From positions 1 through 64,000 of the forward strand of contig JAXLYX010000019.1 of assembly GCA_046351215.1 (NCBI GenBank): a stretch of 64,000 nucleotides of DNA, written 5' to 3'. Below the pieces are notes generated by a model. That model was not told where the DNA came from. It did no database searches and saw only the letters and a list, made by a program, of their open reading frames with translations. Both the position numbers and the translations under genes were made by a program. This document shows, one piece after another, positions 4,172 to 24,436 of this stretch (position 1 is its first letter; each line of letters opens with the position of its first letter). This DNA is from Polyangiales bacterium. GTDB lineage: Bacteria; Myxococcota_A; Polyangia; Polyangiales; Houyiibacteriaceae.

Positions 4172-6013
4172 TCAGGCGGCTCGATCGTCACCGTCGGAGG
4201 GGGCCCGGACCTCGGGGATCGGACGGCTCTCCTCCTCGCCGCGGCTCACGGTCGGCTCCTCGACCACCTGGGTCGGGCCCGGCCCCGCGGTGGAGCCGAG
4301 CCGGGCGGCGGCCGCCGTGGCGAGGGTGCCGAGCCCCGCGACGAGCTCCCGCGTGCCGTCTCCGGCCTGCGCGAAGAAGCCGTTCACGACCTCGGCCGCC
4401 GACTGGCCCCGGATCAGCGACTCGGCGATGCGGGCGACGTCGTCGGTCGTTCCGTACAGGTTCGCCTGCATCTTCGTGAAGAGGCTGGCCTGCGCGTTGG
4501 CGACCGCCACCCGGACCTCCTTCTCGGCTTCGATGCGGAGCTTCGCGAGCTCGAACTCCTGGGCGACGCGACCGTGCTGCTCCCGGGCCTCGAGCTCGCG
4601 GCGCACGACGGTGTCGATGCGATCGCGCTCGACCTCGACCTCCGCGCGGCGCACCTCGATCGGGATCATCGCACGGACCTTCTCGCCGCCCGCCCGCAGC
4701 CTCTCGGCCTCGGCGTCCGCTTCGGCGCGCTTGCGCGTGGCCTCGGCCTCCGCGTCGGCCGCGACGCGGCGCGCTTCCGCCTGCTTCGCGAGCGTGTAGG
4801 CCTCGGCGTCCGCGCGGCGCTGCTCACCGACGTACGCCATCTCGGCCTCCGCCTCGGCGGCGAGCACCTTCTGCACCTTGCCTCGCTCGGCGTCCTCGCG
4901 GACGCGGACGGTCTCGACCTGCTGGCGCGCACGCTCGCGCAGCGCCTCCGCCTCGGCGAGGGCCTGCTCCGCAGCCGCACGACGACGCTCGGCCTCCGCG
5001 ATCCGCTCCTGCTTCTCGCGCTCGGCCACCTCGATCGCCTGCTCCTCGGCGCGAGCGGCGATCGCGAGCGCCTGCCGCTTCTCTAGGTCCGCGAGGTCCA
5101 TCTGGCGCCGCGCCGCGATGGTCTCGAGGTGGGCGTCACGGGTGGTCGACGCACGGACCCTCTCCACCTCGGCCCGCTGCCGGGCCTCGGCCTCGTTCTC
5201 CACGCGCTCGAGCTCGAGCACCTGGCTGCGGGCCACGACGTCCTGCTCCTTGCGCACCTTCTCTCCTTCCCGCACGAGGCGGTTCCTCTCCGTGAGGTTC
5301 AGCTGGGTGATCTCGGCGATCTTGCGGCGACCCTGGGCGTCGAAGATGTTGCCGTCCCGGAGGAAGCTCTCGTCGGTCTGGTCGAGGCGAGAGATCGTGA
5401 CCGTCTCGAGCACGAGACCGTTGCTCCGGAGGTCCTCGCCGACGAGACGGACGACCTCGTTCAGGAACTCGTCACGCTCCGAGTTGAGCTCTTCGAGCGT
5501 GCGGCTCGCGGCGGCCGTACGGAGCGCCGAGACCAGCTTGTCCTCGACGAGGGCCTTCACCTCCGGCGAGCGGCTCATGCGGTCGCCGAGCGAGCGAGAG
5601 GCCTGGAGGATGCTCTCGGCGTCCGGCTGCACTCGGACGAAGAACTCCGCGCGGACGTCCGCACGGAGCTTGTCGCTCGTGATGAGGGCGTCCTCGTTCT
5701 CGCGGCAGACCTCGAGCTTGATCGTCTGGAGCGAGACACGTACGAGCTCGTGGACGAACGGCACGACGAGCGCGCCGCCGTCGCGCACGACGCGCGCTCC
5801 TCCGAGGCCCGTCCGGACGAAGGCCTCGTTGGCCTTCGTGCGCTGGAAGAGCTTCGTGATGGTGGCGAGCACGGTCGTGGCGGCGAGCACGAGCGTGCCC
5901 GTGCCGGCGAAGACCGCGGTCTCCGCCGCGCCGAGGGGTTGTCCCACCACACGCGCGATCACGGGCGTCGCGACCAACGCGATACCGAAGAGAGTGGCGA
6001 GCCAGGCTGTCAT
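4172..6013 (-). CDS. Flotillin-like SPFH/band-7 domain protein (YqiK/FloA family) with a long Ala/Glu/Arg-rich coiled-coil region
   Basis: N-terminal TM segment, SPFH domain ('ETVTISRLDQTDESFLRDGNIFDAQGRRKIAEITQ'), then EA-repeat coiled-coil ('AEAEARQRAEVERVRA...'). ATG at 6013 overlaps the NfeD stop (ATGA). The rest of the 1021-aa ORF-track frame upstream is an artefact. Confidence 0.8.
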   Translation of the reverse strand: MTAWLATLFGIALVATPVIARVVGQPLGAAETAVFAGTGTLVLAATTVLATITKLFQRTKANEAFVRTGLGGARVVRDGGALVVPFVHELVRVSLQTIKLEVCRENEDALITSDKLRADVRAEFFVRVQPDAESILQASRSLGDRMSRSPEVKALVEDKLVSALRTAAASRTLEELNSERDEFLNEVVRLVGEDLRSNGLVLETVTISRLDQTDESFLRDGNIFDAQGRRKIAEITQLNLTERNRLVREGEKVRKEQDVVARSQVLELERVENEAEARQRAEVERVRASTTRDAHLETIAARRQMDLADLEKRQALAIAARAEEQAIEVAEREKQERIAEAERRRAAAEQALAEAEALRERARQQVETVRVREDAERGKVQKVLAAEAEAEMAYVGEQRRADAEAYTLAKQAEARRVAADAEAEATRKRAEADAEAERLRAGGEKVRAMIPIEVRRAEVEVERDRIDTVVRRELEAREQHGRVAQEFELAKLRIEAEKEVRVAVANAQASLFTKMQANLYGTTDDVARIAESLIRGQSAAEVVNGFFAQAGDGTRELVAGLGTLATAAAARLGSTAGPGPTQVVEEPTVSRGEEESRPIPEVRAPSDGDDRAA

Positions 6014-6672
6014 CGATGGTTCTCCGTTTCTGGATCGACCGGGGGCGAGAGCGCCTCCGGTGGAAGGGGGACGACGAGGTCGCGGTGCCGGCTCCGGTCG
6101 TGGTCGACCACCAGCACGTGCGCGCCCACGGGCGGCAGCGGCTCCTCGCTCTCGACGGGGACGCGCAGCTCCGTTCCGTCGTCGTGGCGGACGCGGATCA
6201 CGCCTTCCGAGGCCGAGAGACGCAGCACGACCACGCCGACGCGTCCGCGCCGCTCGGAAGGGGACGAAGCGTAGGTCTCGACGCTCGGGATCATGGAGGC
6301 CACGAGTCGGGTGAAGACCGGATTCACGGTCACCGCGAGCACCGATGCGAGGACGACCGACACCCACGCATCGATCGGTCTCGGCAGGAACGACGGGGTC
6401 ACGGTCGCGAGCAACCAGCCGCTCGCGCCGAAGAGGGCCGAGAGGCCGAAGAGACCCACGACCACCGGCACGCGTCCGAGGCCGACGATCGACAGCAGGG
6501 CTGGCAGCGGGGACGAGCCCGCACCGTCCGCGTCGCCGTCGCCGTCGCCGTCGCCATCCGCGTCGCCATCCGCGTCGCCCGTGGCCGCGCCGAGCACCGC
6601 GCCGACGGAGAGGAGGACCGAGGCGGCGAGCGCGATCGCGAAGAGCCATTCGTGCGCACGGAGGGGATGCAT
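6010..6672 (-). CDS. NfeD-like membrane protein (YqiJ family), partner of flotillin
   Basis: Hydrophobic N-terminus 'EWLFAIALAASVLLSVGAVLGAA', OB-fold-like C-terminus, and position immediately upstream of and translationally coupled to flotillin. Contains a (DG/DA) repeat 'DADGDADGDGDGDGDADG'. ATG at 6672 with a GAGGT Shine-Dalgarno sequence. Confidence 0.6.
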   Translation of the reverse strand: MHPLRAHEWLFAIALAASVLLSVGAVLGAATGDADGDADGDGDGDGDADGAGSSPLPALLSIVGLGRVPVVVGLFGLSALFGASGWLLATVTPSFLPRPIDAWVSVVLASVLAVTVNPVFTRLVASMIPSVETYASSPSERRGRVGVVVLRLSASEGVIRVRHDDGTELRVPVESEEPLPPVGAHVLVVDHDRSRHRDLVVPLPPEALSPPVDPETENHR

Positions 6673-6782: not shown

Positions 6783-8195
6783 ATGCATCGTCCGATGCAA
6801 GATGCACGGATGCCGCGAGCCGTCCCCCGTTCCGTCGCACGCAGCGTCGAGAGGCTGCTCGGCAATCCACTCGATGTCCCCGCGGACGAGCGGGAGGAAG
6901 CCGTCCGGACGATCTCCCGAGCGTCGCCGTCCGGCCTCTCGGAGTGGGCCGCGGCGCTCGGCGCCGAGCCGGTCGCGCTCGCGGTCGCGGTGTCCGCCAT
7001 CGGAGCCGGCCGGGAGCCCTCCGAGGCCCTCGTGGCCGCGAGGTCGGTCCTCCGCGAGCCGAAGTCCGCGCCGCTCGCCTCCGAGCTCGTGCGGATCGCG
7101 TCCGCGTCGAGCCGGTGCACGTCGGCCCTCGCGGCGATCGCGGGCGAGAGCGACGCGCTCACGGAGCTCCGTCGGGCCACGTGGGGGGCCTGTTTCGGGC
7201 GCTCGATGCTCCACGCCCGCCACGTCGCCCGCGTCATCCGCGATCACGACGTGCTCGTCACCGGGGAGACCGGCACGGGCAAGGAGCTCGTCGCCGAGGC
7301 CATCCTCGCGGGGGCCTTCGGGCCGGTCGACGCGGGGCCTCCGCCGAGGGCGGCGCTCAACGTCGCGGCCGTCCCCGAGACGCTGGTGGAGAGCGAGCTC
7401 TTCGGGCACCGACGCGGGGCGTTCACGGGCGCGACAGCCGATCGCCGCGGTCTGATCCGCTCGGTCGACGGGGGCTGCCTCTTCCTCGACGAGGTCGGCG
7501 AGCTCCCGCCGACCGTGCAGGCGAAGCTCCTCCGCGTCATCGAGACCGACCGAGTCCAGGCGATCGGCTCGGACGTCACGCATGCGGTCGACGTCCGCTT
7601 CGTCGGGGCCACGCACCGGGATCTCCGGGCGGCGATCGAGGCCGGCACGTTCCGCGAGGACCTCTACCAGCGCCTCGCGGGCACCGTCCTCCACGTGCCG
7701 CCGCTGCGCGAGCGCCCCGGGGACGTCGTGGCGATCGGCGAGCGGTTCCTCGAAGAGATCCCCCTCGGTGGTCCCATGGCGGCGGAGATCGCTCGAGTGC
7801 GCCGCTGGCTCCACGGCGACGAAGCCCGCCGCCACGCCTATCCCGGCAACGTCCGCCAGCTCAAGAACGCGCTGCGGAACCTCCTGCTCGGGCTGCCGCA
7901 CGCCCTCTCCGAGGCGCCCGCGTCGCCCGCCCTCCGGGCCTCCTTCGCGGGCGAGGTCGTGCCGGAGCGGATCCGGGGCGGCAGCGCGACGTTGGCCGAG
8001 GTGGAGGCTTGGTACGCGCATCGGGCGCTCGAGGCCTCGCGCGGGAACGTCGCGGCCGCCGCCCGTCTCCTCGGCATCGACCGGACCACCCTCGCCCGCA
8101 AGCAGCGGAGCTTCGCGGGAGCCGGCGTCGGGGGCTCGGAGACGGGCGGAGGGGAGCTCAGGGGACGAGGGAGACCCGGAACCTCCGGCCCTTGA
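6783..8195 (+). CDS. Sigma-54-dependent transcriptional activator (AAA+ enhancer-binding protein with C-terminal Fis-type HTH). N-terminal domain of unknown sensory type.
   Basis: 'VLVTGETGTGKELVA' Walker A, 'GAFTGA' sigma-54 contact motif ('RRGAFTGATAD'), 'GNVRQLKN' sensor II region, C-terminal HTH. The start could be the ATG at 6783, 6795 or 6810. Confidence 0.8.
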   Translation: MHRPMQDARMPRAVPRSVARSVERLLGNPLDVPADEREEAVRTISRASPSGLSEWAAALGAEPVALAVAVSAIGAGREPSEALVAARSVLREPKSAPLASELVRIASASSRCTSALAAIAGESDALTELRRATWGACFGRSMLHARHVARVIRDHDVLVTGETGTGKELVAEAILAGAFGPVDAGPPPRAALNVAAVPETLVESELFGHRRGAFTGATADRRGLIRSVDGGCLFLDEVGELPPTVQAKLLRVIETDRVQAIGSDVTHAVDVRFVGATHRDLRAAIEAGTFREDLYQRLAGTVLHVPPLRERPGDVVAIGERFLEEIPLGGPMAAEIARVRRWLHGDEARRHAYPGNVRQLKNALRNLLLGLPHALSEAPASPALRASFAGEVVPERIRGGSATLAEVEAWYAHRALEASRGNVAAAARLLGIDRTTLARKQRSFAGAGVGGSETGGGELRGRGRPGTSGP

Positions 8196-11635: not shown

Positions 11636-12640
11636 TCAGACCGCCGGCGGCTCGGAGCGCCTCGCCACGTGGGCGCGCTCCTTCGCCGCATACATGCGCT
11701 GGTCCGCGAGCGCGATCAGCATGTCGACGCTGCCGACCTCCGCGCTGTTCGCGAGGCCGATGCTGAGCGTCGGCGCGTCGGGGAGCCCCTCGAGGTTCTT
11801 CGAGACGCGCTCGCGGATACGTTCCGCGATGTTCTCCGCGTGGGCATAGTCGGTGTCGACGACGACGACGAGGAATTCGTCGCCGCCGTACCGGCCGACG
11901 AAATCGCCCGGACGAAGGGCGTCGCGGATGCCGCGGGCCACGAGTCGGAGGACCTCGTCGCCCCGGGCGTGCCCGTAGCGATCATTGATCTCCTTGAAGC
12001 GGTCGAGGTCGACGAAGAGGAGCGTGAGCGGCCGACCGTTGCCCTTCGAGTGCGCGAGCATCTCGGTCAGGCCCTCGACCACGTACGGGCGGCTCGCCAC
12101 GCCCGTGAGCTCGTCCGTCTGCACCTTCGCGAGCAGCGCCTCGCGTCCCGACGCGTGGTACGTCTCGAGCGCGAGCTCGAGGTCGAAGGCGACCACGCGG
12201 CCGAGCGTCACGAGCAGCTCGGCTGCCCGTCCCGGCTCCGCACGGACGAGGGATTGCGCGAGCAACGCCTCGAGCTTGGCGAAGGCCCCGACGTAGAAGC
12301 TCGGAGCGATGCCGAGCAAGGCGTGCGTCTTGCCGACGCGCAGACGGGTCTCGACGTAGTCGAGGCGGTCGATGCCCTTGCCGAGCGTGCGGAGGTAGCG
12401 GCGGAGGTGCCTACGGAGCGTCGCGCGGCGATGCGACTCCGCGAGATGCGGGGCGAGCGCCGTCTCGGTCGCGACGTGGTCGAGGAACGCCCCGATGGTC
12501 GAGTCGAGCTCCGCCTCGTACGCCGCGCGGATGCGATCGAGGCGCTCCTGGTCGGTGCGCTCGAAACCGAAGAACGAGAGTCGCCGCCGGAGCTCCTCGT
12601 CGGAGATCCCGTGGCGCTCGCACTCCGAGAAGCCGCTCAT
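11636..12640 (-). CDS. Diguanylate cyclase (GGDEF) with N-terminal globin-coupled-sensor-like domain
   Basis: C-terminal 'RYGGDEF' active site with 'LLFVDLDRFKEIND' upstream. The N-terminal about 160 aa contains 'VGKTHALLGIAPSFYVGAF', resembling the proximal-His region of globin-coupled sensors (HemAT/DosC-like). Confidence 0.7.
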   Translation of the reverse strand: MSGFSECERHGISDEELRRRLSFFGFERTDQERLDRIRAAYEAELDSTIGAFLDHVATETALAPHLAESHRRATLRRHLRRYLRTLGKGIDRLDYVETRLRVGKTHALLGIAPSFYVGAFAKLEALLAQSLVRAEPGRAAELLVTLGRVVAFDLELALETYHASGREALLAKVQTDELTGVASRPYVVEGLTEMLAHSKGNGRPLTLLFVDLDRFKEINDRYGHARGDEVLRLVARGIRDALRPGDFVGRYGGDEFLVVVVDTDYAHAENIAERIRERVSKNLEGLPDAPTLSIGLANSAEVGSVDMLIALADQRMYAAKERAHVARRSEPPAV

Positions 12641-12660
12641 GGTCGAAGCCTACCACCGTC

Positions 12661-13692
12661 TCAGGGGGAGTCCGGCCCCCACGGCAGGGGCCCGAGGAGT
12701 TCGCGGAACGGTGCGCCCCAGCCCCTCATCTCCTGCGTCTCCACTCCACGGGCCGCGAGCCAGCGGGAGACGAAGGCCTCGTCGGCAGCGCGCGCCGTGC
12801 CCGGCGCGCTCGCCGTGCGGACGAACGTGTGCCGGCGAAGCGCGCGATCGAGCGAGCGCCGACGCTTCTCCGGGTCTTCCCCGTTCCACTGGCGCTCCTT
12901 GTCCGCGACGAAGAGGTGGCGCCGGACCCCGAGCCACCGGGCCAGGTTCACGTCGGTCATCGAGAGCCCGACGAAGACGCAATGGCTGTCGTGGAGCGCC
13001 TCGAGGAGCACCCGGTTCGGGAAGGAGCTCGGGGAGGCGACCGTGGCCCAGTACTGCTCGTCGGTGAAGACGAGGCAGTCGGGAGCGTCGGGATAGGAGC
13101 GCGGCTCCCCGGGGAGGAAGCCGTGGACGTGGTAGACGGGGATCGGGGGCCGGCCGCCGAAGCCCCGCTCCCGGCGGATGTGGGCGCTCTCGCGCGAGAT
13201 CGGCCAGAGGACCGGGGCCGATTTCGAGCGGCCCTTCGCGTTCGCCGCCCGCTCGAGGAGGTCGTCCGCGTTGAAGGTGATGACGCGCGTGACGTGGCGT
13301 TCGGGCCGCGCCTGATCCCGGGCGAGCGTCTCCACCAGCGCCGAGAGCGTGCTCCCCTTCGGCCCCTTCACGTCGGCGTACATGGCGTCCGCGAGGAGCT
13401 TCGCGAAGGCGGAACGCCCCGTCGCGGGCGCGGCCTTCCGGGCACGGCGTTCCTTCCGCTCGAGCTCGTCCTCGAGCGCCTCGAACGCGATCTGCAGGGC
13501 GAGCGGATGCGGAGCGGGATGTGCCCAGGGCTCGCTCACCCAGGCGGGAGGCTCTTCGCCGCGAATTTCCCGGAAGACCCGCCCCACGAGGGCGGGCCAG
13601 GACGGGATCCCGCTCTCCATCGAGACGCCGGCTCCGAGCACGAGCGTGACGGGGCTCTCGGGCAGGCTGCGGGAGACGAGGGGCTTGTGCAT
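12661..13692 (-). CDS. Stand-alone SIR2-like domain protein (SIR2_2 / DHS-like NAD-binding family)
   Basis: 'VTLVLGAGVSMESGIPSWPAL' (GAG-S...P-W), 'VITFNADDLLE' (VITTNYDxLLE-like) and 'VYHVHGFL' (catalytic-His-like HG). ATG at 13692. Ends 20 bp upstream of the GGDEF gene start. Confidence 0.6.
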   Translation of the reverse strand: MHKPLVSRSLPESPVTLVLGAGVSMESGIPSWPALVGRVFREIRGEEPPAWVSEPWAHPAPHPLALQIAFEALEDELERKERRARKAAPATGRSAFAKLLADAMYADVKGPKGSTLSALVETLARDQARPERHVTRVITFNADDLLERAANAKGRSKSAPVLWPISRESAHIRRERGFGGRPPIPVYHVHGFLPGEPRSYPDAPDCLVFTDEQYWATVASPSSFPNRVLLEALHDSHCVFVGLSMTDVNLARWLGVRRHLFVADKERQWNGEDPEKRRRSLDRALRRHTFVRTASAPGTARAADEAFVSRWLAARGVETQEMRGWGAPFRELLGPLPWGPDSP

Positions 13693-13754
13693 CGTGCCCG
13701 AGGCTATCCCCCCGCGGGGTGGGGGTCGAGCGTCCGGCGCCGACGCGGCTCCTC

Positions 13755-16114
<2,360 letters not shown>

Positions 16115-16145
16115 CTCCCGCGAATCCCCCGAAAAACCCCAAGGA

Positions 16146-16864
16146 ATGCCGTGCCCCGCGGTTGACATCGCAGGGGCACGGCGCTTGACTCCGACCGTGC
16201 CGCGTTCCCCGAAGCCCATCCGCATCGCCCCCTCCATCCTCTCGGCCGACTTCGGTCGCCTCGCCGAGGAGGTCGCCGCCGTCGATCGCGCCGGAGCCGA
16301 CTGGATCCACGTCGACGTGATGGACGGGCGCTTCGTCCCGAACATCACGATCGGGCCGCTGGTCGTCGAGGCGGTGCGCCGCGCCACGACGAAGCCGCTC
16401 GACGTCCACCTGATGATCGTCGAGCCGGAGAAGTACGTCGAGGACTTCGCCAAGGCGGGCTCGGACATCATCACCGTGCACGCCGAGGCCTGCACCCACC
16501 TCCACCGCACGCTCCAGCAGATCAAGTCCCTGGGGAAGCGCGCCGGCGTCTCGCTGAATCCGCACACCTCCGAGGACTGCCTCCGCTACGTGATGGACCT
16601 GGTCGACCTCGTCCTCGTGATGAGCGTGAACCCGGGCTTCGGAGGCCAGGCCTACATCCCCTCGGCGGGCGAGAAGCTCGCTCGCATCCGCGCCATGATC
16701 GACGCCACCGGCCGCGACATCGACCTCGAGGTCGACGGCGGCGTGAAGCCCGGCACCGCGCACCGCGTGATCGAGGCCGGCGCCGACGCCATCGTGGCCG
16801 GCTCCGCGGTGTTCGGGGCGAAGGACTACGCCGCGGCGATCCGAGCCATCCGAGAGGACCGCCC

Positions 16865-16868
<4 letters not shown>
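16146..16868 (+). CDS. rpe: Ribulose-phosphate 3-epimerase
   Basis: '[13 protein letters not shown]', '[12 protein letters not shown]', 'VDGG' motifs. True start may be the in-frame TTG (16185) or GTG (16197) downstream of the hairpin. Confidence 0.85.
16148..16182. terminator. 10-bp perfect inverted repeat GCCGTGCCCC / GGGGCACGGC with a 15-nt loop containing TTGACA, between metY and rpe. Could be a terminator-like hairpin or a protein-binding site.
   Basis: Inverted repeat seen directly in sequence, 34 bp after the metY stop and overlapping the first possible rpe start. Confidence 0.35.
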
Positions 16869-18249
<1,381 letters not shown>

Positions 18250-18253
<4 letters not shown>

Positions 18254-19200
18254 AGATCCTCGTCCTCGGGGCCGGGGCGGTGGGGCAGGTCTTCGCGACG
18301 CACCTCCGCCGCAGCGGTGCGTACGTCGCCCTCTACGTGAAGCCGAAGCATGCCGAGGCCTGCCAGCGCGGCCTCACGCTCTACAGCCATCGGCTCTTCC
18401 GCCGGCACACGGTCGAGACCCTGCACCCCGACGACGTCTACACGACGCTCGACGAGGTCGCGGGGCAGCGCTGGGATCAGGTCTGGCTCTGCGTCTCGAC
18501 CGCCGCGCTCGAGGGCGAATGGCTCGATCCGCTGCTCGAGGCGATCGGCGACGCGACCCTCGTCTGCCCACAGCCGGGCCTGCACGTGCTCGAGAGGGTC
18601 TCGCACATCGTGCCGCCCCAGCAGGTGGTCTCCGGCACGATCGGGTTCATGAGCTACCAGGCGCCGCTGCCCGGCGAGGCGCTCGATCCCGGCGTCGCCT
18701 ACCTCTTCCCGCCGCTCGGTGCGAGCCGCTTCAGCGGCCATCCGGATCGCGTGGATCCGGTCGTCGCGGCGCTCCGGCGCGGCGGATGCCCGGCGCGCGT
18801 CGTGCGCGACGCGCGGGCGACGCTCGCCTATTCCTCGGCCTTCCTCCTGCCCCACGTCGCCGCGCTCGAGGGCGCCGGTTGGACCTTCGAGGATCTCCGG
18901 CACGGCCCGTGGCTCCGCCTCGCTTCGCGCGCATGCGCCGAGGCCATGCGGGTGGTGCGCACCGAGCTCGGCGTACGCCTCCCCTGGTACCGGATCTTCG
19001 CCCAACCGACGCTCGTGCGGATCGCGACGTTGGTCCTGCCGATCCTCCTGCCCTTCGACGTCGAGCGCTTCGCCCGGTACCACTTCACGAAGATCGGGGA
19101 TCAGAACCGCCTCGTGATGCAGGGTCTGTACGAAGGCGCACGTCAGCACGGCATCGAAGCTCCGGGGCTCACCGAGCTCTACGAGCGCGTCTACGGCTGA
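18250..19200 (+). CDS. Ketopantoate reductase (ApbA/PanE) family oxidoreductase
   Basis: N-terminal Rossmann 'MKILVLGAGAVGQVFA'. Size and overall pattern fit the KPR family. ATGA overlap with the upstream activator. Confidence 0.6.
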
Positions 19201-19295
19201 GGGGGCGCCGAGTCGCGTCGACGGCCGGCCCGCGCCCTTCCTCCTGACGGAAGGGGCCGTCCCGTGCGACCCTTCGAGGGGACCGGAGGATCGAC

Positions 19296-21716
19296 GTGAG
19301 GACTGGCCGGGCGGCCTATGTTCGAGAGGGGCTCCTCTTGGCCGTGACGTACTTCGTCTCGGGGTACCTCGGGCTGCGCCTCGCGACCATCGGGGGCGCC
19401 GTCACGCTCTTCTGGCCGCCGACCGGCCTCTCCATCGCGGTGCTCACCGCGCGCGGCCTCGGGCTCTTCCCCTTCGTCATGGTCGGCTCGTTCGCGGTGA
19501 ACCTCGTCGCGATGGGCGACGTGCCGACGAGCCTCTTGGTCTGCGTCGGGAACACGCTCGAGGCGGTGCTCGGCGCGACGTTGCTCCGGGGCCCCTTCGC
19601 GATCCGTCCGGACTTCGGCCGACAGCGCGACGTCCTCGCGCTCGGCGCCGCGACCGCGCTCGCTTCGCTGGTCGCCGCCGCCATCGGCGCGACGGCCCTT
19701 CGCATGCGTGGGGTCTCCCTGCCGTTCGAGCAGATCGCGCGCGTGTGGTGGATGGGGGACGCCGCCTCGGGCCTCGCGGTCGCGCCGGCCGTGCTCACCT
19801 GGCTCGCGCCGGAGACGGAGATGCGCCGCGTCTCGAGGCGTTTCCTCGTCCTCTTCGGCCTCGGCGTCGCCGTCAGCATCGCGTTCGTCTTCCTGATCCG
19901 GTTCGCCGAGCCGCGCACCGCGCACCCCTTCCTCTCGCTGCCCTTCGGCTTCGTCGTGGTCGCCGCGCTGCGGCTCGGACCGCGCGGCGCGACGACGACG
20001 CTCCTCGCGGTCGCCGCGGTGGCCGTCGTCGGCACGGCCGACGGCCGTGGGCCCTACGCGGACGCCGATCCCCAGGTCTCGATGCGACTCGTCTGGAGCG
20101 GTATCGCGATCGCGTCCGTGGCCATGCTCCTCCTCTCGTCGGTGGTCGCCGAGCGCGTCCGCGCCCAGGCGGCCCACGAGGCGGTGCAGGCGCGCTTCGC
20201 GGCGGCGTTCGAGCACGCGCCCGTCGGCATCGCGCTCGTGGATCTCGGTCCTCGGTTCGTGCTCGTGAACTCGAGGCTCGCGGAGATCCTCGGCCGACGG
20301 CCCGACGAGCTCGTGGGCACCTCGGTCGACGACGTGCTCGGGCGCGGCGTCCGCCGGGAGATCGCCCACGCCCTCTCGGACGCCATCGCGGCCGGGGCTC
20401 CGTACGCCGAGGCCAGCGTCGAGGTCGTGGGCGCCCACGGGGTCAAGCACCGCTGCGACGTCCGCTTCACCGTGCTCAGCGAGGCGGACGAGGTCGTCGG
20501 CTTCGTGGCGCACGTCGAGGACGTCACCGATCGCGACAAGGATCGCCGCGAGCGCGCCGCCCTCGAGCGCCGCGTGGTCGAGGCGCAGCGCATGGAGAGC
20601 ATCGGCAGCCTCGCGGGGGGCGTCGCGCACGACTTCAACAACATGCTCCAGGCGATCCTCGGGAACATCGATCTGGCGCGGGCGGCGATCCGCCGCGGAC
20701 AGGAAGCGGAGCGCTACCTCGTCCGCGCCTCCGATGCGGGCGATCGGGCGGCACGGCTCACGCAGCAGCTCCTCACCTTCAGCCGGCGACGCCCGGCGGA
20801 GCTCGAGGTCCTCGATCTCGCCGAGACCGTGGAGTCCGTGAGCTCGATGATCCGTCGTCTCCTCCCCGAGAGCATCCACCTCGAGCTCGAGCTCCCGCCC
20901 AAGCCGGTCTGGGTGCGCGCGGACGCGGGGCAGGTCGAGCAGGTCGTCATGAACCTCGTAGTGAACGCGCGGGACGCGATGCCGTCGGGAGGGCGCGTCG
21001 TCGTCTCCGTCGCCGAGCTCGTGGGCGGCCCGAAGCCGGTAGCCGAGCTGCGCGTGGAGGACGAAGGAGAGGGCATCGCTCCCGCCGTGCGGCAGCGGAT
21101 GTTCGATCCCTTCTTCACGACCAAGCCGCTCGGAAAGGGCACGGGTCTCGGCCTCTCCGTCGTCTACGGGATCGTGACGGATCACGGAGGGACGGTCGAC
21201 GTCGACTCGACCTACGGGAAGGGGGCCGCGTTCGTCGTGCGTCTGCCGATGACGGGACCTCCCGAGCGACGCGAGCGTCCGCGCTCGGAGCGGCCGAAGA
21301 CCGAGACGGGCGTCGAACGGATCCTCGTCGTCGAGGACGAGGAGGTCGTCCGCAACGTCGTCCACTCGATCCTCGAGGACGCCGGCTACGACGTGGTCGT
21401 CGCGTCGAACGGGAAGGAGGCCCTGGAGCTCCTCGCGCAGGATGCCGAGGTCGATCTCGTGGTCCTCGACGTCGTCATGCCCGTGCTCGGCGGGAGGCCC
21501 ACGTACGAACGCCTGCGCGTCCTGCATCCGACGATCCCCGTCCTCTTCACGAGCGGCTACGCGGACGACGAGCTCGGGCCGGACTTCCTCGAGCACGAGA
21601 AGATCCGCATCCTCCGCAAGCCCTACGATCGGAGCACGCTGCTCGCGCGGGTCCGGGAGCGCCTCGACTCCGCGGCGGCCGAGGCGCCGTCCGACTCCGT
21701 GCCGCCTCCGGCCTGA
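19296..21716 (+). CDS. Hybrid sensor histidine kinase: N-terminal multi-TM (MASE1-like) domain, PAS, HisKA, HATPase_c and C-terminal receiver
   Basis: About 8 predicted TM helices, then 'HDFNNMLQAI' H-box, 'DEGEGI'/'GTGLGLS' ATPase motifs. Receiver with 'LVVLDVVMP' and 'LFTSGY'. GTG start. Confidence 0.8.
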   Translation: MRTGRAAYVREGLLLAVTYFVSGYLGLRLATIGGAVTLFWPPTGLSIAVLTARGLGLFPFVMVGSFAVNLVAMGDVPTSLLVCVGNTLEAVLGATLLRGPFAIRPDFGRQRDVLALGAATALASLVAAAIGATALRMRGVSLPFEQIARVWWMGDAASGLAVAPAVLTWLAPETEMRRVSRRFLVLFGLGVAVSIAFVFLIRFAEPRTAHPFLSLPFGFVVVAALRLGPRGATTTLLAVAAVAVVGTADGRGPYADADPQVSMRLVWSGIAIASVAMLLLSSVVAERVRAQAAHEAVQARFAAAFEHAPVGIALVDLGPRFVLVNSRLAEILGRRPDELVGTSVDDVLGRGVRREIAHALSDAIAAGAPYAEASVEVVGAHGVKHRCDVRFTVLSEADEVVGFVAHVEDVTDRDKDRRERAALERRVVEAQRMESIGSLAGGVAHDFNNMLQAILGNIDLARAAIRRGQEAERYLVRASDAGDRAARLTQQLLTFSRRRPAELEVLDLAETVESVSSMIRRLLPESIHLELELPPKPVWVRADAGQVEQVVMNLVVNARDAMPSGGRVVVSVAELVGGPKPVAELRVEDEGEGIAPAVRQRMFDPFFTTKPLGKGTGLGLSVVYGIVTDHGGTVDVDSTYGKGAAFVVRLPMTGPPERRERPRSERPKTETGVERILVVEDEEVVRNVVHSILEDAGYDVVVASNGKEALELLAQDAEVDLVVLDVVMPVLGGRPTYERLRVLHPTIPVLFTSGYADDELGPDFLEHEKIRILRKPYDRSTLLARVRERLDSAAAEAPSDSVPPPA

Positions 21717-21718
21717 GG

Positions 21719-24436
21719 TCAGCCGGTGTTGCGGAGGCCTGCCGCGATGCCGTTGATCGTCAGCAGGATCGCCCGGTCGAGGCTCTCGGGCACGGCCTCG
21801 CCCTTCGACGCGAGCTCCCGCTTGCGTCGCAAGAGCTCGACCTGCACGAAGCTCATCGGATCCACGTAGGGGTTCCGGAGCTCGATGGAGCGGGCCAGCA
21901 CGGGCTGCTTGGAGAGGAGCGAGTCGGTGTCCTCGATGCGCTCGATCGCTCGCACGGCGCGCGTGTGATCGAGGGCGATCCGGCCGAACATGCGAGCGCC
22001 GAGCTCGCGGTCCGGCACGAGCGAGGCGTAGTGCTGGGCGATGCGCATGTCGGCCACGGCGAGGGCCACCGCCATCGCGTCGACCGTCGTCGCGAAGAAG
22101 GGCCAGCGTGCCTTCATCCGACGGGCGAAGTCGACGCCTCGGGTGGAGAGCAGGTGCTCGAGGGCCTCGCCGCCGCCGAACCAGCCGGGTACGTTCTGTC
22201 GGGACTGCGTCCAGGCGAAGACCCACGGGATCGCGCGCAGGTCCTCGAGGGAGGCCGCGCCCGTCCGTCGCGCGGGACGGGAGCCGATCGGGAGCGCGCC
22301 GATCTCCGAGAGCGGCGTGGAGGCCGTGTAGTACTCGAGGAAGTCGGGATCGCGCACGAGCCCTCGGTACGCTGCGAGCGCGACCTTCGACAGCTCGGCG
22401 AACGCCGACTCGTACTCGGCGAGCTCGCTCTCGTCGGGATAGTCGGTCACGAGGGAGGCGACGATCACGCCGCCCGCCGTCTGCTCGAGGTTCCGCTCGG
22501 CGACCTCCGGCAGGAGGTACTTCCAGCCGATGACCTCGCCCTGCTCGGTGATCTTGAAGCGGCCGGCGATCGACCCGGGTGGAAGACCCTCGATCGCGCG
22601 GCGCGAAGGCCCTCCGCCGCGGCCGATCGACCCTCCGCGGCCGTGGAAGACGCGGATCGCGATGCCGTGGCGATCGCCCACGTCGACGAGCCGCTTCTGG
22701 GCCTCGTAGAGGGCGAACGAAGACGAGAGGATGCCCGCGTCCTTGTTCGAGTCGGAGTAGCCGATCATCACCTCCTGCACGTTCCCGCGCAGCCCGAGGT
22801 AGGTCCGGTACACCGGATCCGCGAACGCGGTGTCGAGCTCGCGGGGGCAGCGTTCGAGGTCGTCGAGGGTCTCGAAGAGAGGGACGACGGAGACGTCCGC
22901 GATGCCTTCCTCGGGCCGGTACACGCCGGCGATCCGCGCGAGCACGAGCGTCGCGAGAAGGTCCTCGTGGCCGTGGGCCATGCTGAGGATGAAGGACTCG
23001 GCGCTCTCCCGCGTGACCCGGGCGCGCATCGCGGAGACCGCTTCGAGCGCGCGCATGCCCGGGCAGTCGGGGCGGGCGGGGACGCGCCTCTCGACCAGCG
23101 CGGCATGGAGCGTCCCGGCGTCCGCGGTGCGCCCTTCCGGGAGCCAGAGGGCCCTCGCCACGGCCTCGCGCACCCAATGCGAGCCCACCCGGATGTCGAG
23201 GCGCGCGAAATGGAAGCCGAAGACCTCGACCTGGCGCCTCAGCGAGCGCACCTGCCGGAGGCCCGCGTTCGTGCCGCGGTTCGCGGCGAGCGAGCGCTCG
23301 ATCACGCGCAGGTCCGCCACGAGCTCGGCCGGCGACGCGTAGCCGTGGGAGGCCTCGACCTTCTCGCCCGCGCGACCGCGGACGAAGCCGTCCCTCGTCG
23401 CCCGGAGGCGGGCTTCCATCCAGCGCAGCTTCCGGCGGTAGGGCTCCCGATCCGTGCGCGGATCCTGGTAGGCCGCGAGCTCCGGGAGCGCGTCGTGATC
23501 GGCGGCGATCGAGGCCCTCAGCTCGTCGCTCACGTCGACGCGGACGAGGCTCTGGGAGAGGACCTCGCCGAGCTCCTCGAGCCGCGCGAGGTGCTGACCC
23601 GTGGCGCGGGCCGCGAACGCGTAGGCGGTGTCGAGCGCGACCTCGGGAGTGACGTTCGGATTCCCGTCCATGTCGGCTCCGACCCACGAGCCGAAGCGGA
23701 GGAACGACGGGATCTCGAGGGTGCCCCCGAACGCGCCGGAGAGGCTCTCCTCGACCGACTCGTAGAAGCGGGGCACGAGCGGGTAGAGGATCTCCTCGAG
23801 GTAGAAGAGGACGTTCTTCACCTCGTCGCCGACGCGGGGCTTCGCATGCCTGATCTCGTCCGTCTGCCAGAGGATCGCGATCTCCTCCCGGAGCCTCCGC
23901 TCGACGTCGCGGCGCTCGGCCGGCGTCAGCGCGACGAGCTCGAGCCGCTCGAGCAGGTCGGTGATGCGCCGATGCTTCTCGAGGACCGTGCTCCGCTGCG
24001 CCTCGGTGGGATGGGCCGTGAAGACGAGCTCGATCGAGAGGTCCCGGAGGGTCTCCTCGAGCGTCTCCCGCGAGACGCGGCCCGAGAGCCGGCGGAAGTG
24101 ATCGGCGAGGTCCCCGGCCTGGGTCGTCCCCGCGTGGCCGTGGGCGCGGCGGCGCCGCACGCGGTGGTACTGCTCGGCCAGGTTCACGAGCTGGAAGTAG
24201 TGGGCGAACGCCCGTGCCACGCGCTCGGCGGTCGCGACGTCGAGCTCCGCGACCGCCGCTCGGAGGGCGTCGTCGAGCGCGTCCTCGCGCTCCGTCGTCC
24301 GACGTTCCTTCGCCAGGCCGCGGAGGCGCTCCTCGAGGGCGAGGAGCCCGTCCCCCTCGAGCTCGACCAGGGTGTCGCCCAGGATCGTCCCGAGGAAGGA
24401 GACGTTCCGTCGCAGGGGTTCGAACGCGTCCGTCAT
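21719..24436 (-). CDS. ppc: Phosphoenolpyruvate carboxylase
   Basis: 'VFTAHPTE', 'GYSDSNKDAG', 'FHGRGGSIGRGGGP' signature motifs and terminal 'NTG'. Convergent with the kinase with a 2-bp gap. Confidence 0.9.
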   Translation of the reverse strand: MTDAFEPLRRNVSFLGTILGDTLVELEGDGLLALEERLRGLAKERRTTEREDALDDALRAAVAELDVATAERVARAFAHYFQLVNLAEQYHRVRRRRAHGHAGTTQAGDLADHFRRLSGRVSRETLEETLRDLSIELVFTAHPTEAQRSTVLEKHRRITDLLERLELVALTPAERRDVERRLREEIAILWQTDEIRHAKPRVGDEVKNVLFYLEEILYPLVPRFYESVEESLSGAFGGTLEIPSFLRFGSWVGADMDGNPNVTPEVALDTAYAFAARATGQHLARLEELGEVLSQSLVRVDVSDELRASIAADHDALPELAAYQDPRTDREPYRRKLRWMEARLRATRDGFVRGRAGEKVEASHGYASPAELVADLRVIERSLAANRGTNAGLRQVRSLRRQVEVFGFHFARLDIRVGSHWVREAVARALWLPEGRTADAGTLHAALVERRVPARPDCPGMRALEAVSAMRARVTRESAESFILSMAHGHEDLLATLVLARIAGVYRPEEGIADVSVVPLFETLDDLERCPRELDTAFADPVYRTYLGLRGNVQEVMIGYSDSNKDAGILSSSFALYEAQKRLVDVGDRHGIAIRVFHGRGGSIGRGGGPSRRAIEGLPPGSIAGRFKITEQGEVIGWKYLLPEVAERNLEQTAGGVIVASLVTDYPDESELAEYESAFAELSKVALAAYRGLVRDPDFLEYYTASTPLSEIGALPIGSRPARRTGAASLEDLRAIPWVFAWTQSRQNVPGWFGGGEALEHLLSTRGVDFARRMKARWPFFATTVDAMAVALAVADMRIAQHYASLVPDRELGARMFGRIALDHTRAVRAIERIEDTDSLLSKQPVLARSIELRNPYVDPMSFVQVELLRRKRELASKGEAVPESLDRAILLTINGIAAGLRNTG

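Follow-up and report, generated by a model that had tools for sequence, protein, structure and literature searches.

The window analysed here, a stretch of DNA of 64,000 nucleotides, carries a real gene for a stand-alone SIR2-like protein, which is probably an active, single-domain enzyme able to cleave NAD, as judged from its sequence and predicted structure. It is proposed that this enzyme acts as a solo NADase, that its adjacency to a globin-coupled diguanylate cyclase gene is incidental, and that its role is probably related to stress or infection, a reading to which a probability of roughly 55% is assigned. The protein is a member of a small, uncharacterised subfamily within the known SIR2_2 enzymes, and comparison of 32 loci gives no sign of a new multi-gene system around it. 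The features that bear on this reading are collected in Table 1.

Table 1. Positions of the features discussed, in the window unless another locus is named
Feature	Position	Strand	Basis
Stand-alone SIR2_2 (SIRim-type) protein, 343 aa	12661..13692	-	Pfam + motifs
Globin-coupled diguanylate cyclase (Protoglobin + GGDEF)	11636..12640	-	Pfam E=7e-25 / 2e-37, NCBIfam
PD40-repeat lipoprotein	13755..14735	-	Pfam PD40 + lipobox LGAC
Block MetY, Rpe, FHA-sigma54 activator, ApbA, MASE1-PAS hybrid kinase, PEP carboxylase	14843..24436	.	Pfam
Rpe-to-PEP-carboxylase part of the block	16146-24436		
Band_7/SPFH gene and YqiJ_N-type membrane protein gene	4172-6672	-	
Sigma-54-dependent activator	6783-8195	+	
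Sigma-54-dependent activator	16865-18253	+	
MASE1-PAS hybrid histidine kinase	19296-21716		
P0002, SIR2 gene call in L001	L001 8001-8936		
D12-class N6-adenine DNA methyltransferase	L014 10542-11357	+	Pfam 1.4e-52
First gene of tandem SIR2_2 pair, 341 aa	L023 4849-5874	+	
Second gene of tandem SIR2_2 pair, 419 aa	L023 5969-7228	+	Pfam SIR2_2 3e-12
~500-aa SIR2_2 protein WP_032434307.1	L089 5425-6939	+	

The open reading frame of 343 codons plus a stop yields exactly the 343-aa protein described in the original prediction, with the motifs GAGVSMESGIPSWPAL, VITFNADDLLE, and YHVHGFL. The identical sequence is held at NCBI as MFO0696284.1, "SIR2 family protein [Polyangiales bacterium]", and is present on 16 contigs; the gene already carries this generic annotation. 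SIR2_2 (PF13289) is the sole Pfam domain of the protein (residues 136-254; E=8.6e-10; 39.3 bits vs a gathering cut-off of 24.5), and the Pfam scan gives no match to canonical SIR2 (PF02146), even at E<=0.1. Thus, the earlier assignment to the SIR2_2 type rather than to the canonical sirtuins holds, as does the statement that there is no added effector or sensor domain. None of the PADLOC or NCBIfam defence models matches the protein beyond the NAD loop: the PADLOC ThsA match is limited to residues 9-43, and NCBIfam Dsr1 reaches 12.8 bits vs a cut-off of 1400. The composition of the gene is like that of its host (GC3 of 0.92, with a window GC of ~71%). Public gene calls of some subfamily members begin after the GAGVS loop, giving 308 aa for the window gene (P0001) and 311 aa for its counterpart (P0002) in L001, the locus of the closest relative. 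The frame upstream of these late starts is conserved, as BLAST aligns the window with L001 over 339 aa at 67% identity; consequently, both starts are probably mis-annotated.

The sites of interest in the protein are the NAD loop (G20-A-G-V-S24), W32, N141 and D143 (FNADD), H190 (YHVHG), and D247 (GLSMTD). An alignment of 26 homologues with 35-67% identity to the query contains 28 invariant columns, which include N141 and D143; Y187, H188, H190, and G191 (YHxHG); C238, F240, G242, S244, M245, and D247 (CxFxGLSMxD); and R252 and W253, while the GAG part of the loop is nearly invariant. The catalytic His and Asn, on which the original prediction depended, are therefore both present and unchanged in all 26 homologues. 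In a profile alignment, D247 (GLSMTD247) lies opposite D194 of KomC (GYSLSD194), a residue that a 2026 structural study found to be essential for the NADase activity of KomBC (PMC13454610). The same study reports this Asp as a conserved residue of immune SIR2 NADases that deacetylases lack (PMC13454610). By its predicted fold and active-site residues, the protein is an enzyme of the SIR2_2/SIRim type and bears the hallmarks of those members that hydrolyse NAD+.

The same positions bear on the idea that the protein is a canonical sirtuin-type protein lysine deacylase. The general SIR2 fold and the Asn/Asp/His triad are common to sirtuins. However, PF02146 is without a match, the Asp reported to be NADase-specific is conserved, and the protein has just two cysteines (C206 and C238) and no CxxC pairs, so that it lacks the Cys4 zinc-binding module that canonical sirtuins require (PMC12700824). 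Given these features, the housekeeping deacylase that was originally offered as an alternative is weak, and a deacylase of any canonical type is hardly credible.

The predicted model of the monomer is confident (pLDDT 89.8, pTM 0.90), and when this model is used in a Foldseek search, the best 50 matches are all ThsA, KomC, or DSR2. Structural comparison gives the highest scores with KomC (22.5), KomBC (21.7), and SeThsA (21.5), followed by FAM118B (16.6), Avs5 (16.6), PsSIR2 (15.1), SIR2-HerA (about 13), canonical sirtuins (10-12), and SirTM (8.7); sequence identity to the structural relatives compared is just 14-18%. The four nearest structural relatives, KomC, ThsA, FAM118B, and Avs5, have all been solved as helical or filament assemblies. 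KomBC needs to form filaments in order to be active, and with FAM118B, activity and filament formation go together (for FAM118B, PMC12700824).

Taken together, these features suggest how the enzyme might work. In this model, a self-contained SIR2_2 enzyme would bind NAD+ in its Rossmann pocket via the GAGVS loop, and N141/D143, H190, and D247 would most likely cleave the nicotinamide-ribose bond in the manner of an NAD+ glycohydrolase, a chemistry suggested by the invariant Asn/Asp/His/Asp set together with the fold. Because there is no sensor or partner and the nearest structural relatives were solved as helical or filament assemblies, homo-oligomerisation would probably control the activity, in place of a sensor fused to the enzyme or a partner from the operon. 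Depletion of NAD+ triggered by stress or infection is the leading guess for what such activity would achieve. The apparent lack of a sensor or partner also counts against a solo NADase, since it leaves the restraint of a potentially toxic enzyme unaccounted for. To our knowledge, the bacterial SIR2_2 NADases characterised so far all possess a sensor domain or a partner. Perhaps, then, the protein is a catalytically silent NAD-binding scaffold or sensor: an obvious safeguard against toxicity is missing, and FAM118B, which likewise has SIR2_2 and nothing else, shows minimal activity as an NADase when alone (PMC12700824). However, the catalytic positions are all invariant over 35-67% identity, which argues for retained chemistry, and a silent role appears improbable.

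The immediate surroundings of the gene had suggested a different kind of partner. The cyclase gene lies 20 nt downstream of the SIR2 gene (gap 12641-12660) and the gene for a PD40-repeat lipoprotein lies 62 nt upstream (gap 13693-13754), both on the same strand as SIR2; the coordinates and the Pfam matches agree with the original description. This arrangement had raised the possibility of a three-gene PD40/SIR2/globin-GGDEF module that ties SIR2 activity to c-di-GMP or the sensing of O2. The single strand and the short gaps fit such a module, as do the lack of any predicted terminator between the three genes (a promoter/terminator scan that is uninformative at 71% GC) and a cyclase that looks catalytically competent, its sequence itself showing both an RxxD I-site and a GGDEF motif that is intact. 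However, both neighbours are absent beside the closest orthologue (L001, ~66% identity), even though synteny on the rpe side is kept. Furthermore, of 85 related loci, one has a GGDEF homologue nearby and none has a PD40 homologue, and both families fall outside the 25 commonest Pfam families of 134 pooled neighbours. Comparative genomics thus largely refutes the three-gene module, which is now very improbable, and the proposed coupling to c-di-GMP or O2 sensing is not supported. The tight spacing of SIR2, cyclase, and PD40 genes would be a lineage-specific accident of gene order; at most, the SIR2 and cyclase genes could possibly be co-transcribed in this organism, an arrangement that is not conserved. 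The message for annotation is negative: the link between SIR2, c-di-GMP, and oxygen is an adjacency in one genome, which annotations should not pass on as if it were a system. Rfam and tRNA scans, like the promoter scan, found nothing around the SIR2 gene or in the window.

Farther out, the SIR2 gene is flanked by genes for Band_7/YqiJ, sigma-54 activators, DbpA, IlvD, MetY, Rpe, ApbA, and a MASE1-PAS histidine kinase. Up to ~8 kb away there is no known partner of SIR2 proteins, be it TIR, HerA, Argonaute, or another, in agreement with the earlier remark that such partners are not adjacent. The block from MetY to PEP carboxylase (Table 1) is of a housekeeping and regulatory kind, and its part that runs from Rpe to PEP carboxylase is syntenic with L001, in which the SIR2 gene lies beside Rpe, an FHA-sigma54 activator, ApbA, a hybrid histidine kinase, and PEP carboxylase. 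In L001, there is no adjoining MetY, PD40, or GGDEF gene, and a convergent Lon_C gene lies downstream instead. Identities between the window and L001 are 87% for Rpe, 84% for ApbA, 73% for PEP carboxylase, 69% for the sigma-54 activator, 67% for SIR2, and 59% for the histidine kinase. The kept synteny, together with an identity for SIR2 of 67% vs 59-87% for its flanks, indicates that the gene is an old resident of this locus. Thus, SIR2 is a long-standing chromosomal gene, and its immediate neighbours have changed around it.

Two further features of the window may be mentioned. The Band_7/SPFH gene (flotillin-like, 613 aa) and the gene for a YqiJ_N-type (NfeD-like) membrane protein overlap by 4 nt and look like a typical SPFH-NfeD pair, unrelated to the SIR2 finding. 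In addition, two sigma-54-dependent activators flank the SIR2 region within 10 kb; one of them has an N-terminal FHA domain, with the MASE1-PAS hybrid histidine kinase adjoining, and both strongly match the PADLOC RtcR/PspF models, a match of the false-positive type.

Beyond L001, six further contexts with Pfam labels all differ and are mostly metabolic, including methylmalonyl-CoA mutase/DUF1152, ECF sigma/DUF1501, GH92/sulfatase, FKBP, TonB receptor/peptidase S9, and LysR/sulfatase; the labelled gene maps differ from one another in seven cases out of seven. When the six-frame ORFs of 85 related loci, 32 of them from the subfamily, were compared all against all by BLAST, no neighbour family proved common to at least four of the 32 subfamily loci, apart from out-of-frame shadows of SIR2 and generic sigma-54/kinase families. 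A conserved operon partner was rejected, because these shadows and generic families were the only cross-family clusters. Real synteny occurs solely among close relatives (window/L001, L014/L015, L022/L025/L026, L027/L028, and L030/L031). An apparent excess of Ser/Thr kinases, seen in five of the seven annotated contexts, was dismissed because Pkinase is not recurrent among the 134 pooled neighbours and such kinases are very abundant in the phyla that carry the subfamily.

The subfamily itself is small. At least 120 full-length homologues are present among 5.8 billion clustered proteins, nearly all of them 300-430 aa in length with PF13289 as the sole annotation. A profile search of 1.84 billion representatives at 50% identity yields 4,019 matches at E<=1e-3 and 188 at E<=1e-30, and the subfamily proper comprises ~95 clusters at 50% identity (E below about 1e-40), fragments counted. 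Its full-length members have 320-430 aa and are SIR2-only. Domain fusions were considered as a hint to function and dropped, since no extra Pfam domain was found in the longest outliers (413-579 aa). With each GTDB species represented by one genome, a pattern-limited scan finds ~31 subfamily loci, in hosts from the Myxococcota, Planctomycetota (Engelhardtia mirabilis), Acidobacteriota, Gemmatimonadota, Nitrospirota, Verrucomicrobiota, Chloroflexota, and several classes of Pseudomonadota. The spread is sparse, over about 10 phyla, and identity to the window protein is higher for a Gammaproteobacteria MAG (46%) than for the Myxococcaceae (38-40%). A tblastn search of 72,556 plasmids and 50,697 phages, both collections being poor in Myxococcota, gave distant SIR2_2 relatives only and no member of the subfamily. 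The gene is therefore a sparse, horizontally scattered accessory gene. As for whether it is a syntenic core gene, its synteny is stable in close relatives, but the gene is patchy and does not belong to the core.

Members of the subfamily are single-copy, with the sole exception of a tandem pair of SIR2_2 genes in an Anaerolineales MAG (L023, SOIH01000270.1). Here, the subfamily member is followed after 95 nt by a longer paralogue, an arrangement reminiscent of FAM118A/B, in which strong NAD processing needs both paralogues.

For the SIR2_2/SIRim clade as a whole, a 12-fold enrichment with defence systems has been reported (bioRxiv 10.1101/2024.09.18.613514). The subfamily was examined with PADLOC and Pfam using 134 pooled neighbour proteins from within +/-4 kb at 31 loci. 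In this set, enrichment near defence genes is not seen, at a sensitivity limited by gene calling on ~70% GC DNA, which gave one gene per ~1.9 kb; this is about half of the expected number, and a weak neighbour association could consequently have been missed. No Pfam family is dominant among the 134 neighbours. The positive control consisted of 142 neighbours of more distant SIR2_2 relatives, mostly of about 500 aa. By PADLOC family counts, which are semi-quantitative and inflated by generic proteins (a single DbpA helicase accounts for 30 families), the subfamily neighbours match 71 families and the control neighbours match 314, including GajA, AriA, Old, HEC-01, DolB, and PDC-S34/35. The 71 families appear to be traceable to a few generic proteins, among them sigma-54 activators (RtcR/PspF models); one apparent Ser/Thr kinase matches many PD-T4-6 models, and there is one D12 Dam methylase (L014). 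In the window, the 10 genes flanking SIR2 give only generic PADLOC cross-matches (from the two sigma-54 activators and DbpA, plus a single weak match from the histidine kinase). The neighbours of the subfamily are housekeeping genes, not defence islands. Thus, the survey of orthologue neighbourhoods that the original prediction had called for reveals neither an association with defence islands nor, beyond the single locus among 85, one with GGDEF genes.

The methylase in L014, a D12-class N6-adenine DNA methyltransferase encoded ~0.6 kb downstream of SIR2, is the only defence-like neighbour in the subfamily and may be an orphan Dam. Its region is syntenic in L015, and the two loci come from related Polyangiaceae/Myxococcota MAGs.

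The lack of defence enrichment and the absence from plasmids and phages count against the solo-NADase reading. It has to be considered, then, that the protein is a physiological NAD-dependent enzyme kept as an ordinary chromosomal gene, such as a regulator of NAD+ turnover, or an ADP-ribosyltransferase whose target is one specific protein or small molecule of the cell. Such an enzyme would be consistent with the housekeeping neighbourhoods found throughout the annotated contexts, with a defence-island signal that is missing while the positive control shows one, with the results for the plasmid and phage collections, with stable synteny and host-like composition, and with a rate of divergence like that of neighbouring regulatory proteins (67% vs 59-87%). 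The 28 invariant columns across phyla point in the same direction, as several of them lie outside the NAD-site motifs (W32, E71, Y105, R252-W253, H288, and R315-G316 in the 26 homologues); these many residues could just as well reflect a conserved partner or substrate within the cell. However, so sparse a spread over ~10 phyla, with a closer match in a Gammaproteobacteria MAG than in the Myxococcaceae, is atypical for housekeeping, the characterised close structural relatives are all NADase effectors, and the NADase-linked Asp is conserved. Furthermore, no conserved neighbour hints at a substrate pathway. A physiological enzyme is thus possible, if on balance unlikely. The solo NADase remains the preferred reading, and a role for it in conflict or stress fits both the SIR2_2 clade and the patchy distribution.

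Somewhat doubtful, though worth stating, is the broader proposal that this protein is the founding example of a strictly single-domain family of bacterial SIRim NADases that works outside defence islands. If so, a one-gene system is possible, in which the helical sub-domain would sense a trigger and drive filament activation. Alternatively, the protein would serve as an NAD+-depleting switch in host physiology, e.g., in stress dormancy, and a role in developmental cell death is conceivable in Myxococcota and other bacteria with complex lifestyles. Intact NADase residues without a sensor, a partner, or a defence island raise the questions of how such an enzyme is kept harmless and what it is for. 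The subfamily would offer a compact model for the regulation of SIR2 proteins by self-assembly, parallel to the human FAM118 proteins.

Among known systems, the protein fails the defining features of Thoeris, Kongming, HerA, pAgo/APAZ, DSR, and Avs. KomC, the SIR2 NADase effector of Kongming (PDB 8zsf, 9v0g), is like the window protein in fold, with 17% identity. However, KomC has 264 aa, the window protein being about 80 aa longer, and it acts as part of an obligate filament that includes KomB, in dependence on KomA and dITP signalling; KomA/KomB-like genes (deaminase / inactive ITPase-like) are found neither in the window nor near any homologue (32 loci). The fold of Thoeris ThsA (SIR2-SLOG; PDB 7uxt, 8bto) is also alike, but the SLOG/STALD or Macro sensor domain and the ThsB/TIR neighbour of that system are missing from the window protein and its locus. 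DSR1/DSR2, SIR2-HerA (Nezha), SIR2-APAZ/pAgo, and Avs5 have large sensor domains or obligatory partner genes, whereas the window protein has neither; no HerA, Argonaute, or fused sensor/STAND domain is found in the seven annotated contexts or in the window.

The next-closest tier consists of N-terminally extended SIR2_2 proteins of ~500 aa (480-530 aa; E about 1e-37 to 1e-32), which share 24-33% identity with the window protein over residues 15-256 and in which the SIR2 part begins near residue 175. They have an unannotated N-terminal region of ~175 aa and occur in defence-island/mobile-element contexts, whereas the window subfamily has neither. The tier comprises loci L035-L085 and L089, the last on the Klebsiella pneumoniae plasmid NZ_CP129856.1; this Klebsiella representative lies in a CP4-57-like island beside YeeU, RadC, an antirestriction protein, and a WYL protein. 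Strong membership of a PADLOC family is absent throughout the tier, the best match being a partial one to ThsA (1e-15), and these proteins could be an unclassified single-gene defence family.

Outside the bacteria, FAM118A and FAM118B are non-canonical sirtuins that form a vertebrate-specific clade, and their similarity to the window protein is remote (E=1e-3). Strong NAD processing by FAM118B depends on the paralogue FAM118A, whereas the window subfamily is single-copy except in L023. In architecture, the FAM118 proteins and the window protein are nevertheless alike, since both are SIR2_2 proteins of about 350 aa that stand alone.
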